Virus record (IMG/VR): IMGVR_UViG_2690316115_000024
Direction: 5' to 3' (one strand)
Length of the DNA: 3,890 bases
Origin: a virus
Taxonomy: Duplodnaviria > Heunggongvirae > Uroviricota > Caudoviricetes
The position numbers and the translations under genes were made by a program. Shown here one piece after another: positions 1 to 3,890 of the stretch. The first letter of the stretch is position 1, and the number at the start of each line of letters is the position of its first letter. The notes under the pieces are model-generated. The model worked only from the letters and a program-made list of their open reading frames with translations, did not search any database and was not told the origin of the DNA.

Positions 1-573
1 ATGTTTTGCGAAGAAAAAGTAGCTCAAATGGCTGCATACCTACTTCTTAAGAGAGGTGGGCGCATGGCATATCTGAAATTGATGAAGCTGCTCTATCTGT
101 CTAACCGCCAGTCGATTTTGAAGCATGGCAGGATGATCGGCGAAGATAGCCTTTACTCTATGAAATTTGGACCAGTCATGTCGAATACGCTGAACTTGAT
201 TCGCGGTAAGGCTGAAGGCATTGGTGACTACTGGTACAACTTGATAGAGACGAACGGGCATAATGTATCGTTGCGTTCAGATCCGAGGGAAATGGATGCA
301 GACGAGGTCTTTGATGAATTGAGTCGTGCAGATATCCGGATTTTAGATGAAATCTATTCTCGGTATGGGCATATGAACCGATTTGATCTCGCAAATATGA
401 CGCATTTAGAAAGCGTTTGTCCAGAGTGGCACGATCCTGGCAATTCTCGTAAGCCTATAGACCTGAAAGAAATGCTGATCAGTGAGGGTAAAAGCGAGGA
501 TGAGGCTAATCGCATAATTGGCAAAATGGAAGAATCTCAGAAACTTAAGGAATTTTCTTTGCAATTATCATGA
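1..573 (+). CDS. Panacea/DUF4065-domain protein (SocA/GepA-like 'phage-associated protein'); putative antitoxin or regulatory partner of a two/three-gene cargo module; 190 aa
   Basis: Seen: ORF from ATG at 1 to TGA at 571-573. The N-terminal half shows the pattern I associate with DUF4065/Panacea proteins: an N-terminal VAQMAAYLL segment, the KLMKLLYL motif, and a GPV motif (MKFGPVMSNTL) about 30 residues later. The stop overlaps the next start in ATGA (570-573). Limits: the start codon is at the window edge, so the upstream RBS and promoter are not visible and the true N-terminus could lie upstream. Family call is from memory of the motif, not a profile search. Confidence 0.6.
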   Translation: MFCEEKVAQMAAYLLLKRGGRMAYLKLMKLLYLSNRQSILKHGRMIGEDSLYSMKFGPVMSNTLNLIRGKAEGIGDYWYNLIETNGHNVSLRSDPREMDADEVFDELSRADIRILDEIYSRYGHMNRFDLANMTHLESVCPEWHDPGNSRKPIDLKEMLISEGKSEDEANRIIGKMEESQKLKEFSLQLS

Positions 574-989
574 CGGATTATCAGCCATACAGGAAAGGAA
601 CTGTGCTTGCCCCAACTGGACCATGCAATCATCTTCATGTGATTTGTAATGATCCTGTTTATTACCCCGTTAACGATTGTTATTGTGTTTTAGTTGTTAA
701 TATTTCTAGTATCAAGGATGGTGTCCCCCACGATCCGTCTTGCGTCTTGAATTCTGGTGATCATCGCTTTATCAAGCATCCAAGTTATGTTGTTTACGCT
801 GAAGCTATAATTTGGCGAGTGGATAACATGGTTAGAAAGCAGCGATCGGGTGAGATTTCTGTTCATGATGATATGCCAGAAGCTACATTCAATAGAATTC
901 TGGACGGTTTTGATATCTCTGATGAAGTTACGCCAAAGAACCTTAAATTTAAAAATAAATATTGCGTATCATCTATTGATGATGAGTAA
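570..989 (+). CDS. Hypothetical protein, 139 aa, Cys/His-rich, no family recognised; candidate toxin/effector partner of the upstream Panacea-domain gene
   Basis: Seen: ATG 570-572 overlaps the upstream TGA (571-573), so translational coupling is likely and there is no independent SD. TAA stop at 987-989. Cys at residues 19, 26, 37, 39, 58, 132 and His at 21, 23, 54, 65, 70, 99 (motifs CNHLHVICND, DCYCVLVV, HDPSC, GDHRFIKHPSY), with an acidic C-terminal tail. Local GC is low (roughly 30-40% by hand count of sampled 60-nt stretches). Inference: operon position fits a toxin/effector role. I cannot assign a family. Confidence 0.6.
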   Translation: MTDYQPYRKGTVLAPTGPCNHLHVICNDPVYYPVNDCYCVLVVNISSIKDGVPHDPSCVLNSGDHRFIKHPSYVVYAEAIIWRVDNMVRKQRSGEISVHDDMPEATFNRILDGFDISDEVTPKNLKFKNKYCVSSIDDE

Positions 990-1028
990 ACAACAGGAAT
1001 TGTTTCGGTATAACTTCTGGAGTTTTCT

Positions 1029-1202
1029 ATGGAAGATCAAAAAGCAACCAAGCCACAGGTTAAGTTCGACACAATGAAAGCATTCGTAGGTATGGGTGCT
1101 GCTGTTGAAGTTCTGATGAAGGCTGCTCCTAATGCGTTCACTCACGCTACTGTCTCTGGTAAAGAGCAGCAGGGTAAGCTTCGTCGTCTCAAAGCAGCAT
1201 GA
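1029..1202 (+). CDS. Small ORF, 57 aa (MEDQKATKPQVKFDTMKAFVGMGAAVEVLMKAAPNAFTHATVSGKEQQGKLRRLKAA), unknown function; not in the supplied ORF track
   Basis: Seen: ATG at 1029-1031 preceded by GGAG (1019-1022) with 6-nt spacing. An in-frame TAA at 1011-1013 rules out a longer form. TGA stop at 1200-1202 is followed about 20 nt later by a strong intrinsic terminator. Codon choice is dominated by GCT/GTT/GGT/CGT/ACT/TCT, resembling highly expressed enterobacterial genes. Short ORFs are easy to over-call, hence moderate confidence. Confidence 0.4.
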   Translation: MEDQKATKPQVKFDTMKAFVGMGAAVEVLMKAAPNAFTHATVSGKEQQGKLRRLKAA

Positions 1203-1221
1203 TCATAGCTGGTGCTTTTTG

Positions 1222-1250
1222 AAAACCCGCCTTCAGGCGGGTTTTTTCTT
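1222..1250. terminator. Bidirectional Rho-independent terminator between convergent transcription units
   Basis: Seen: AAAA-ACCCGCC-TTCA-GGCGGGT-TTTTTCTT. A perfect 7-bp GC-rich stem (1225-1231 / 1236-1242) with a 4-nt loop is followed by a T-run (1242-1247) on the plus strand and preceded by an A-run (1222-1225), which gives a shorter U-tract for the minus-strand transcript. It lies directly after the plus-strand 57-aa ORF stop (1202) and the minus-strand gene stop (1250-1252). Confidence 0.8.
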
Positions 1251-1531
1251 TAGTGATTTTCTTTGCCCTTCTGTTTGACTGTTCTGACCTGTTCCCACTC
1301 GATACGTCCTTCTTCTCGCCTTTTGTCTATGTATTCCGCAAGATCCTGAATATTGATGCAACGTTTTGCTTTTTGTGATGTGCCGATGCGATATGTTGGA
1401 ACGGGCAACTTACAAGCGTTTGCTTTTGCTTCTGCCGTGGCTGGACTCATACCAAAGTACTTTTGGCTAACTGCTGAGAGTTCAATGTTTGGGGTATTGA
1501 ATTCAGCCATCAGTAAAAACAAGGTGTTCAT
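1250..1531 (-). CDS. PrtN-family / excisionase-like small DNA-binding protein (putative Xis), about 93 aa
   Basis: Seen: minus-strand ORF with TAA stop at 1250-1252. Preferred start is ATG at 1529-1531, preceded by GGAG with 6-nt spacing (GGAGAAAATT-ATG). The track's longer GTG start at 1556-1558 has no SD. It is the last gene of the leftward operon and is followed by the terminator. Established/inference: the sequence (AEFNTPNIELSAVSQKYFGMSPATAEAKANACKLPVPTYRIG...DLAEYIDKRREEG, basic C-terminus) resembles PrtN-like proteins annotated as excisionases in P22/Sf6/HK620-type prophages. From memory, unverified. Confidence 0.6.
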   Translation of the reverse strand: MNTLFLLMAEFNTPNIELSAVSQKYFGMSPATAEAKANACKLPVPTYRIGTSQKAKRCINIQDLAEYIDKRREEGRIEWEQVRTVKQKGKENH

Positions 1532-1567
1532 AATTTTCTCCATCAAAACCGGCTGCACCCGGGAAAA

Positions 1568-2140: not shown

Positions 2141-2706
2141 CACTTCACCTCCAGCGGCGGTTCCGGTAGCGGCATCCAGTGAGTTGCTTGCTCAATACCA
2201 TTACCCGGCTTAATCGTTGCATCTCCGCGCCGAAAGGTGCTTCCGGTATAGCGTGCGGAGCATATTAGCGGTTCAACCTGAGAGCTATCGAAATTCACCG
2301 AAATAAGCACGTTCTGGCCCTTTTCAGGCATTCGATCACTACAGCTTATCCAACTATCCGGAGTTCCCGGAGAGTTGCCATTTACATCGAAGTTTGGCTC
2401 TGCGTCCTGAACTAGGAGGATGTAACCATTTTTGGCTGTATCAAGTTCTAACGCCTCGGTGACGGTACCGAAATAGCGATTACCTAAATCAACATCACAA
2501 GTGCTTACATCAATGGAAACTTCCATGCCTTCGATTAATTCTGGCAAGTTGTAAGTTTGGCTTACAGGCTCTGCTTCCAGCGATACCAGTGCAATTCGTG
2601 CCAGTTCTTCCGCTTCTTCTGCTGGCAGTACAACGTTGCTGCCAGGTCCGTATGTTTCGCGCCACTGCTGGATTGTCAGCAGGCGTTCTTTGGTAATAGT
2701 GGTCAT
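2140..2706 (-). CDS. DUF551-domain phage protein, 188 aa
   Basis: Seen: ATG at 2704-2706 with upstream AAGGTGA SD; TGA stop at 2140-2142. The C-terminal ATHWMPLPEPP motif is the hallmark I associate with DUF551 proteins of enterobacterial lambdoid prophages. The N-terminal region is acidic. Family call from memory. Confidence 0.75.
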   Translation of the reverse strand: MTTITKERLLTIQQWRETYGPGSNVVLPAEEAEELARIALVSLEAEPVSQTYNLPELIEGMEVSIDVSTCDVDLGNRYFGTVTEALELDTAKNGYILLVQDAEPNFDVNGNSPGTPDSWISCSDRMPEKGQNVLISVNFDSSQVEPLICSARYTGSTFRRGDATIKPGNGIEQATHWMPLPEPPLEVK

Positions 2707-2708
2707 AG

Positions 2709-2900
2709 CTATTTCACCTTAATCTCAACATTTCGCAGCTTTAGCTCTACTGGCAGGTCTGACTTTCCTGTTAATGCTAATGCGAGATTTTCTGGAGTAA
2801 TGAGAGCAGTTATTGTTTTCCCCCTCGCCAGACGAATAATCATTCGTATTTCGCGATCGTCACATGCTCCCGGTCGAACAATTGATATTTGTCCGTTCAT
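2709..2900 (-). CDS. Small hypothetical phage protein, 63 aa (MNGQISIVRPGACDDREIRMIIRLARGKTITALITPENLALALTGKSDLPVELKLRNVEIKVK)
   Basis: Seen: ATG at 2898-2900 preceded by GGAGAGTGAG (SD GGAG, 6-nt spacer) and lying 1 nt after the TGA of the upstream Ea22-like gene (2902-2904). TAG stop at 2709-2711, 2 nt before the next start. The ORF track's 117-aa version (start 3062) would overlap the Ea22-like gene by 160 nt with no SD, so I prefer the internal start. Confidence 0.55.
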   Translation of the reverse strand: MNGQISIVRPGACDDREIRMIIRLARGKTITALITPENLALALTGKSDLPVELKLRNVEIKVK

Positions 2901-2901
2901 C

Positions 2902-3558
2902 TCACTCTCCTTTGATGCGAATGCCAGCGGCGCGCTCGGCTTCACTTTGTTCCCAAAACCACTTGTGAAGCTCCATAAGCTTTTCGTCAATCGGTGCATA
3001 TTTGCGATTAAAGTAGGCCTGAGCATCTTTCTCAGATTCGTCCGGTAATTCGCCTGGGCCAAACAGTGTGTTATAAATCCATGCCAGTCCGCTTTTAGCG
3101 TCGCCAGTCGATTGCCATTCGATAATCGCAGCCTGCATGACCAGAATGTTTTTCCCGATTAATAGGTCCAGTTCTTTGTACCGGTTGCGGATGTATGCAT
3201 TCTCTCTTTGTAATTTTGCGTTGCGCTTCTCTGCGGCTTCCAGCTCAACACGCAGTTTCCCTACCGTTAGCGCAATTTCCTCGTTCTCCTGGTCGCGGCG
3301 TTTTATGTATTGCTGGTTTCTTTCCCGTTCATCTAGCAGCGCCAGCACGGTAGCCGGATTAGCCCTGGCAACAAAATCCCGGACAGGCTTACAATCAATC
3401 TCCGCAATGGGTTGATACGATGTGTAGCCATGCTGTCTTGTATAACTACCGTGACGAATAACGAAAAAATCACCGTTTATTTTTTTAGCCTGCCACTTAT
3501 CTTCACCGGCTTTCACTGCCGCCTCACGCAGTGCCTGATAGTCAATTTTGTTTGTCAT
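2902..3558 (-). CDS. Ead/Ea22-like family phage protein, 218 aa, with a central coiled-coil-like segment
   Basis: Seen: ATG at 3556-3558 with SD GAGG about 7 nt upstream. It overlaps the upstream gene's TGA (3555-3557) in ATGA. TGA stop at 2902-2904. N-terminus MTNKIDYQALREAAVKAGEDKW and a heptad-like charged stretch (ERERNQQYIKRRDQENEEIALTVGKLRVELEAAEKRNAKLQRENAYIRNRYKELD) match my recollection of ead/Ea22-like proteins in lambdoid early-left regions. Confidence 0.75.
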   Translation of the reverse strand: MTNKIDYQALREAAVKAGEDKWQAKKINGDFFVIRHGSYTRQHGYTSYQPIAEIDCKPVRDFVARANPATVLALLDERERNQQYIKRRDQENEEIALTVGKLRVELEAAEKRNAKLQRENAYIRNRYKELDLLIGKNILVMQAAIIEWQSTGDAKSGLAWIYNTLFGPGELPDESEKDAQAYFNRKYAPIDEKLMELHKWFWEQSEAERAAGIRIKGE

Positions 3559-3731
3559 GTAACTACCTCTTCGAATTTCAACTCCAGTTGATCACCCCAG
3601 ATTTCACATGACTCTGAACACGAGCCGGTATCGAATCGCCCGGCCTGCACCATCGCCTGATACAAATTCCAGTAGTCGCTGTCGGCATACATTCTGGCAA
3701 TCCCTTCAAGACTCAGATGACCACGGTACAT
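3555..3731 (-). CDS. Small hypothetical phage protein, about 58 aa (MYRGHLSLEGIARMYADSDYWNLYQAMVQAGRFDTGSCSESCEIWGDQLELKFEEVVT); 5' region abutted by an IS insertion
   Basis: Seen: TGA stop at 3555-3557 overlaps the Ea22-like start. Candidate ATG at 3729-3731 has only a weak, distant SD (AGGT about 9 nt upstream). The ORF track's 83-aa version starts at 3804-3806, which is inside the IS end, so that form is a chimera of IS and phage sequence. The native gene may have been longer and truncated by the IS. Confidence 0.4.
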   Translation of the reverse strand: MYRGHLSLEGIARMYADSDYWNLYQAMVQAGRFDTGSCSESCEIWGDQLELKFEEVVT

Positions 3732-3757
3732 AACGTCTTTACCTGTTCTGCGATGAC

Positions 3758-3890
3758 TGAGGTAGCCTGAGTTTAACGGACACTCCTTCCTGAAATAGAA
3801 TGGCATCAGAAGGAGCTAATAATGAGCAGAAAAACCCAACGTTACTCTAAAGAGTTCAAAGCCGAAGCTGTCAGAACGGTTCTTGAAAAT
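3758..3890 (+). mobile_element. Left end of an IS3-family insertion sequence (best match from memory: IS600), including the terminal inverted repeat and the start of orfA; continues beyond the window
   Basis: Seen: terminal TGAGGTAGCCTGAGTTTAACGGACAC starting at 3758. It begins with the TG typical of IS3-family ends and has GGACAC 20 nt in, as I recall for the IS3 left IR. orfA starts 64 nt inside with a strong SD (AGGAG, 6-nt spacer). Limits: the right end is outside the window, so the exact boundary (3758 versus 3754) and the target-site duplication cannot be confirmed. Confidence 0.75.
3822..3890 (+). CDS. IS3-family transposase OrfA (HTH DNA-binding subunit), N-terminal 23 codons only (MSRKTQRYSKEFKAEAVRTVLEN), truncated by window end
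   Basis: Seen: ATG at 3822-3824 with AGGAG SD. The translation contains the Y-S-x-E-F-K-x-E-A-V motif characteristic of IS3-family OrfA N-termini and matches my memory of the IS600 OrfA start. Confidence 0.8.
   Translation, partial: MSRKTQRYSKEFKAEAVRTVLEN

Follow-up and report, generated by a model that had tools for sequence, protein, structure and literature searches.

What do the three small genes at the left-hand end of this viral DNA encode, and do they belong together? The stretch analysed (hereafter the window) is 3,890 nucleotides of a Caudoviricetes genome, IMG/VR record IMGVR_UViG_2690316115_000024, with position 1 as its first letter. A first-pass annotation made from the sequence alone had placed three plus-strand open reading frames (ORFs) of 190, 139 and 57 amino acids (aa) here, convergent with the prophage genes beyond them. 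It proposed that they form a three-gene cargo cassette led by a Panacea/DUF4065 gene, a candidate toxin-antitoxin or anti-phage module. All three ORFs are present and share one strand, but the unit that moves between prophages consists of two genes. With some 190 bases that precede the window, positions 1-989 are likely to form a self-contained PanAT cassette, a type II toxin-antitoxin system of two genes that a dusA-integrated lambdoid prophage carries as exchangeable cargo. The domain, the predicted fold, the family, the conserved pairing and the limits of the cassette were determined computationally here. Toxicity, neutralisation, complex formation and the block of translation are taken from the literature on a 43%-identical homologue. 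What is said of RNase chemistry, of the part played by the C-terminal helices, of expression in the lysogen and of biological function is inferred.

A profile search with ORF1 identified the SocA_Panacea/DUF4065 family (PF13274) over residues 27-137, with an E-value of 2.2e-19 and a score of 70.9 bits against a cut-off of 25.7, which bears out the Panacea assignment proposed earlier. The protein, hereafter PanA, corresponds to RefSeq entry WP_000458584.1 ('Panacea domain-containing protein'). Its homologues cluster tightly, at lengths of 185-190 aa, and share the N-terminal motif MF(C/S)E(E/Q)KVAQ. ORF1 begins MFCEEKVAQ, and position 1 of the window is therefore the true panA start. The structure predicted by AlphaFold (predicted local distance difference test, pLDDT, 93.1) is a Panacea core without an N-terminal domain, followed by C-terminal helices at residues 155-161 and 166-189. 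Comparison of this model with the PDB using Foldseek gave nothing meaningful (best E 2.3), and the PanA profile found no match among PDB sequences.

The second gene, ORF2 (hereafter panT), opens within the end of panA. The ORF2 ATG (570-572) and the ORF1 stop codon TGA (571-573) share four nucleotides in an ATGA overlap, as had been noted from the sequence. The ORF2 product matched nothing in Pfam, NCBIfam or PADLOC, and matched only PHROG 19071, a group of unknown function. Close relatives fall into 62 clusters in Enterobacterales, Vibrio and Shewanella, and a profile search collected 2702 representative clusters (50% identity) at E <= 0.001. One 90%-identity protein cluster of 541 members mixes PanA (190 aa) with ORF2 (128/139 aa), a database artefact that affects cluster sizes.

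The gene neighbourhoods of ORF2 homologues were compared next to one another. A 29-sequence alignment was used as the query, hits were obtained in 28 species-representative genomes, and the loci were scanned with hidden Markov models built from PanA and from the ORF2 family. In 26 of the 26 non-Escherichia coli loci with enough upstream DNA, a PanA gene directly precedes the ORF2 homologue in the same orientation and overlaps or abuts it; the two loci without a visible upstream PanA are contig ends. The Panacea-type pairing suggested for this locus is thus matched by the neighbourhoods of its homologues. The pair lies between tail genes K and I in Enterobacter, Klebsiella and Citrobacter prophages, between AlpA and an integrase in a Shewanella island, beside the integrase in Yersinia phage YeP1, near the portal gene in the P2-like Pseudomonas phage Sirocco, and also in a Helicobacter prophage. 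The flanks in these five phage or island contexts are unrelated, and a Panacea domain was confirmed by Pfam in the upstream partners of all five. The antitoxin-then-toxin order with overlapping codons extends from Gamma- and Alpha- to Epsilonproteobacteria. These sequence comparisons support the view that ORF1 and ORF2 are a conserved unit of two genes, resembling a toxin-antitoxin module and placed where prophages carry cargo.

This pair could be placed in a catalogue of Panacea-linked toxins reported by Kurata et al. in 2022 (PNAS 119:e2102212119; PMC8832971). In cluster T6 of that catalogue, PanA proteins that have no N-terminal domain are paired with 'hypothetical proteins'; the antitoxin gene precedes the toxin gene, and the overlaps are -4 or -1 (PMC8832971). 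The T6 list includes 'Yersiniaceae bacterium 2016Iso4', with toxin WP_101821906.1 and an overlap of -1 (PMC8832971, Dataset S1). That strain, now named Chimaeribacter coloradensis 2016-Iso4, is among the loci recovered here (L017). Its ORF2 homologue is 55% identical to ORF2 (tblastn E 3e-49), overlaps PanA by one base, and was returned as WP_101821906.1 by an exact-sequence look-up. The T6 list further contains Pantoea septica LMG 5345, with an overlap of -4 (PMC8832971); its homologue (L018) is 56% identical to ORF2 and has the overlap listed. The one validated member of the cluster is the pair from Pseudomonas moraviensis BS3668/LMG 24280 (PanA WP_083354365.1, PanT WP_083201923.1). In E. 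coli this PanT proved toxic, an effect relieved by its own PanA; it came down in a complex with that PanA, specifically inhibited 35S-Met incorporation, and was MazF-like by HHpred (PMC8832971). Aligned with ORF2 over 120 residues, the T6-family protein SDU72800.1 from P. moraviensis BS3668 shows 43% identity (E 6e-34). The Sirocco PanA starts MIFSEQKVAQ, the same ten residues that Kurata et al. restored to the P. moraviensis PanA. The accessions WP_000458584.1 and WP_014640052.1 (the RefSeq entry for ORF2) were not found in the available part of the Kurata et al. supplementary lists.

The locus and the P. moraviensis pair are alike in several respects. Both have a stand-alone Panacea antitoxin of about 185-190 aa without an N-terminal domain, with similar N-termini (MFCEEKVAQ here, MIFSEQKVAQ in the author-corrected P. 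moraviensis protein and in Sirocco). Both have a toxin, or predicted toxin, of about 132-139 aa that gives no conserved-domain match and is MazF-like only at the level of fold or HHpred, and both have the antitoxin gene first with an overlap of one or four bases. They differ in setting: the copy described here belongs to a dusA lambdoid prophage of E. coli or Shigella, whereas the P. moraviensis copy was scored 'NotPhage' (PMC8832971). The earlier statement that the partner belongs to no recognised family no longer holds, as ORF2 is a member of PanT cluster T6 with a MazF-like predicted fold.

The search for a toxin fold in ORF2 gave a divided result. Sequence profiles (Pfam, NCBIfam, PDB sequences and hhalign) were negative, the ORF2 profile finding no MazF among PDB sequences, and structure prediction was positive. 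An AlphaFold model built from 29 homologues (pLDDT 92.6; predicted template modelling score, pTM, 0.86) was compared with the PDB using Foldseek, and the top 50 matches were all MazF structures (probability 1.00, best E 8e-4). ORF2 is accordingly predicted to have the SH3-like barrel fold of the MazF/Kid/CcdB superfamily. Across 50 diverse members of the ORF2 family, H21, C58, H65 and G113 are invariant, and D55, S72 and Y76 are present in at least 90%. The residues H21, D55, C58 and H65, encoded at about 630-764, look like a metal site or a catalytic centre unlike the Arg/Thr centre of MazF.

The start codon of panT was reconsidered. RefSeq/PGAP starts the protein at GTG 603, giving 128 aa (WP_014640052.1, labelled 'hypothetical protein'). 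This start has a good Shine-Dalgarno-like sequence, AGGAAAGGA, but the stretch encodes a conserved Arg-Lys-Gly, and codon 12 is unusable as a start in most homologues. The residues upstream of codon 12, (Y/F)xP(Y/F)RKG, are kept at the protein level through synonymous codon changes. An in-frame ATG lies a few codons upstream, at the panA end, in the 18 other distinct sequences compared, and in most of these codon 12 is GTT, ATT, CTT, ATA, GTC or TTA, none of which is a start. The GTG-603 start was rejected on these grounds; ORF2 probably begins at ATG 570, and the annotated protein is probably 11 residues too short. No Shine-Dalgarno sequence was found within range of ATG 570. Given this and the overlap with the panA stop codon, translation of panT is likely to be coupled to that of panA.

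The boundaries of the cassette were defined by comparison with E. coli genomes. Several E. coli chromosomes, that of O103 strain RM8385 among them, match positions 1-1260 of the window at 100% identity, as phage Lys8385Vzw does for the ORF2 and ORF3 proteins. Along the RM8385 chromosome, zur is followed by a DUF2713 gene, 105 bp of dusA, ORF1, ORF2, ORF3 and then the convergent prophage genes; the prophage is therefore integrated at dusA, with the cassette at its attachment-site end. In pairwise alignments, the exchanged segment starts 192 bases before the window, ends at position 1015 and measures 1208 bp (7808-9015 in the RM8385 locus, L001). Its boundaries are sharp and its flanks are 94-99% identical between the compared loci, and the same homology break appeared at query positions 17-20 in a DNA search of E. 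coli genomes. The segment contains a promoter-like site (TTGACC-17-TAAACT) upstream of the window, panA and panT, with the ORF3 ribosome site just outside it. No operator-like inverted repeat was found within or upstream of the cassette. The panAT DNA is present in 208 of 5426 complete E. coli genomes (about 4%). Instead of panAT, the slot in O157:H7 strains and in phage mEp460 is filled by a 177-aa gene that is unrelated and has no Pfam match (WP_000956557.1); in loci with this alternative cargo the slot lies at 2695-3497 (L041) and 1685-2487 (L009).

By analogy with the P. moraviensis pair, E. coli panAT would be a toxin and its neutralising antitoxin, acting through a direct PanA:PanT complex. 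Free PanT would stop growth through a block of protein synthesis, for which RNA cleavage is the likeliest cause, and PanA would neutralise it by direct binding. The C-terminal helices of PanA may contribute to neutralisation, as suggested by the Phd-C helices on another PanA (Ernits et al. 2023). The cassette is probably expressed in the lysogen from its own promoter, and the pair may either stabilise the prophage or trigger abortive infection once PanA is lost or inactivated.

Two other Panacea systems invite comparison. SocAB of Caulobacter crescentus is the original DUF4065 antitoxin system, and its antitoxin carries the same Panacea/DUF4065 domain as PanA. SocA is a ClpXP adaptor that delivers SocB for degradation, and SocB targets the replication clamp. 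In contrast, the T6 toxin of P. moraviensis blocks translation and forms a stable complex with its PanA (PMC8832971). The candidate assignment of ORF1 as a SocA orthologue, and with it membership of the type VI SocAB system, was rejected, since the NCBIfam equivalog NF047745 scored 14.4 bits against a cut-off of 190. PanAT T25 of Bifidobacterium ruminantium resembles the present pair in joining a Panacea antitoxin to a MazF-fold toxin, and the T25 toxin inhibits translation (PMC8832971). The B. ruminantium PanT and its relatives in T25 are annotated as PemK/MazF, and the relatives fall in the PemK_toxin superfamily of CDD, whereas T6 toxins, including ORF2, are unrecognised. T6 and T25 are separate clusters (PMC8832971).

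Several results weigh against ORF2 being a MazF-like toxin controlled by PanA. In a Pfam scan of the 50 diverse ORF2-family members, none matched PemK_toxin (PF02452) at E up to 1, and none matched any other model. This sets the family apart from MazEF and Kis-Kid (PemIK), as does the partner, which here is Panacea rather than a MazE/PemI of the AbrB/SpoVT or ribbon-helix-helix type. An hhalign comparison of ORF2 with E. coli MazF was not significant; in that non-significant alignment L22 lies opposite MazF R29 and S46 opposite T52. Since the catalytic Arg29 and Thr52 of MazF are not evidently conserved, and the invariant residues are instead H21, C58 and H65, the chemistry of ORF2 may differ. 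The 43% figure was obtained with SDU72800.1, a presumed equivalent of the tested WP_083201923.1. Eight of the 25 PanTs tested by Kurata et al. were non-toxic in E. coli and five were not rescued (PMC8832971). PADLOC-DB v2.0.0, searched with the ORF1, ORF2 and ORF3 proteins at E up to 1, gave no match, in agreement with the earlier remark that the cassette is not a named defence system, and no paper was found in which a T6 PanAT had been challenged with phage.

The last two results also bear on the most serious alternative, in which the pair is an anti-phage abortive-infection system: PanA would sense or be depleted by an infecting phage, and the released PanT would halt translation, shielding the lysogens and the resident prophage. 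This is a possibility of some substance, although we hold it to be less than even. Its appeal lies in the variable cargo positions of the pair (the attachment end of the dusA lambdoid prophages, the integrase side of YeP1, the portal end of Sirocco and the tail genes of Enterobacter prophages) and in the other cargo carried by the slot elsewhere, with a CoiA-like gene nearby in H10407, just past ORF3. Such locations are equally compatible with simple addiction or stabilisation. A related proposal, which we regard as unlikely, is that T6 PanTs keep the MazF/CcdB barrel with a His/Cys/His plus Asp centre that has an activity or target other than mRNA cleavage, and that the pair may also serve as an abortive-infection defence with Panacea sensing the phage. 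It is improbable that ORF2 poisons DNA gyrase in the manner of CcdB, or that the same fold serves some other activity than that of an RNase, although the fold alone would be compatible with CcdB-like activity and the conserved His/Cys/His/Asp set is unlike MazF. There is likewise only a small chance that the two genes are a conserved phage accessory pair, with ORF2 harmless to the host. The non-toxic fraction of the candidate PanTs of Kurata et al. would fit such a pair, but toxicity and a cognate PanA have been validated for the family member that is 43% identical, and the strict gene order with overlapping codons is kept across the proteobacterial classes given above. A two-gene PanAT cassette remains the preferred reading.

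The 57-aa ORF3 had been proposed as a possible third component, and this part of the first-pass annotation is not upheld. ORF3 matches PHROG 2741, of unknown function, and has no match in Pfam, NCBIfam or PADLOC. It shares a strand with ORF1 and ORF2, and because no terminator separates it from panT, the single one lying after ORF3, it may be co-transcribed by read-through. Three-gene toxin-antitoxin architectures do exist, although accessory third genes were found in small fractions of genomes only (Kurata et al., PMC8832971). The ORF3 DNA is present in 562 of the 5426 complete E. coli genomes (about 10%), against 208 for panAT, and always beside the PrtN-like gene; in phage mEp460 and O157:H7 it follows the unrelated 177-aa gene, without panAT. 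The recombination boundary at 1016 falls between ORF2 and the ORF3 ribosome site, leaving ORF3 outside the cassette, and none of the 34 PanA-T6 loci examined outside E. coli encodes a homologue of it. Judged by this distribution, ORF3 is a separate phage-backbone gene and not a component of the module. A three-component system, with the 57-aa protein as regulator, chaperone or second antitoxin of the Panacea pair, is therefore highly improbable.

Table 1. Coordinates of the panAT cassette and adjacent features in the window.
Feature	Position	Strand	Description
panA (ORF1)	1-573	+	190 aa; Panacea antitoxin
panT (ORF2)	570-989	+	139 aa; predicted toxin, MazF/Kid/CcdB-superfamily fold, PanT cluster T6
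ORF3	1029-1202	+	57 aa; phrog_2741; phage-backbone neighbour
Swappable cassette, right-hand end	990-1015	.	homology with O157:H7 and mEp460 loci restarts at 1016
Intrinsic terminator hairpin	1221-1246	.	between the convergent plus-strand unit and the minus-strand PrtN-like gene
PrtN-like gene	1250-1558	-	

Other features of the layout had been described in stronger terms than they can bear. The Shine-Dalgarno sequence of ORF3 is there, GGAG at 1019-1022, six bases 5' of the ATG, and is decent rather than exceptional. The hairpin after ORF3 has an 11-bp, GC-rich stem followed by a T-run, TTTTTTCTTT, with a fold energy of -19.3 kcal/mol (z -3.0) on the plus strand and -18.1 kcal/mol (z -4.2) on the minus strand. 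The terminator, called strong in both directions at first, is strong for the plus-strand unit and weaker the other way, because the minus-strand tail is only UUUUC. The AT bias is real but modest, with a GC content of 36-45% over positions 1-1200 and 44-51% in the remainder of the window. An Rfam scan of the window gave no match. In enterotoxigenic E. coli (ETEC) H10407, a 'competence protein CoiA' gene (WP_001128526.1; L043 3842-4876) is inserted between ORF3 and the PrtN-like gene, at a point corresponding to window 1220-1229, at the terminator hairpin.

From 1250 to about 3757 all genes are on the minus strand, and Pfam identified a PrtN-like gene, an Rv2179c-like 3'-5' exonuclease, DUF551 and Ead/Ea22. 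These are typical lambdoid early-left cargo. Past DUF551, RM8385 has a 182-aa Ead/Ea22-like gene where the window has a 218-aa Ead/Ea22 ORF (window 2706-3560; L001 10706-11770), and only three complete E. coli genomes match the full 2700-3757 stretch, at 99.9%. The divergence beyond DUF551 is ordinary lambdoid mosaicism. Homology to the prophage ends at about 3757, where an insertion sequence starts (TGAGGTAGCC...); its first ORF, from 3822, has an HTH_Tnp_1 transposase match (window 3757-3890). The insertion sequence breaks a prophage gene of the phosphoadenosine-phosphosulfate-reductase family, and because of this interruption the 83-aa ORF at 3555-3806 on the minus strand is a truncated remnant with a start derived from the insertion sequence.

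The PanAT T6 family was already known. What is new is that the copy in the E. coli dusA prophages is placed in it, and the kind of system is not new. In practice the gain is chiefly in annotation, for a predicted toxin labelled 'hypothetical protein' whose annotated form probably lacks its first 11 codons. The remaining interest lies in that annotation gap, in the unusual conserved residues on a MazF fold and in the candidate defence role. The bounded slot beside the dusA attachment site, with its alternative inserts, may be used to seek other accessory or defence genes of prophages. Placement of ORF2 in a validated toxin-antitoxin family gives a testable function to a common prophage cargo gene of pathogenic E. 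coli, whose carriers include O103, relatives of O157 and ETEC H10407.

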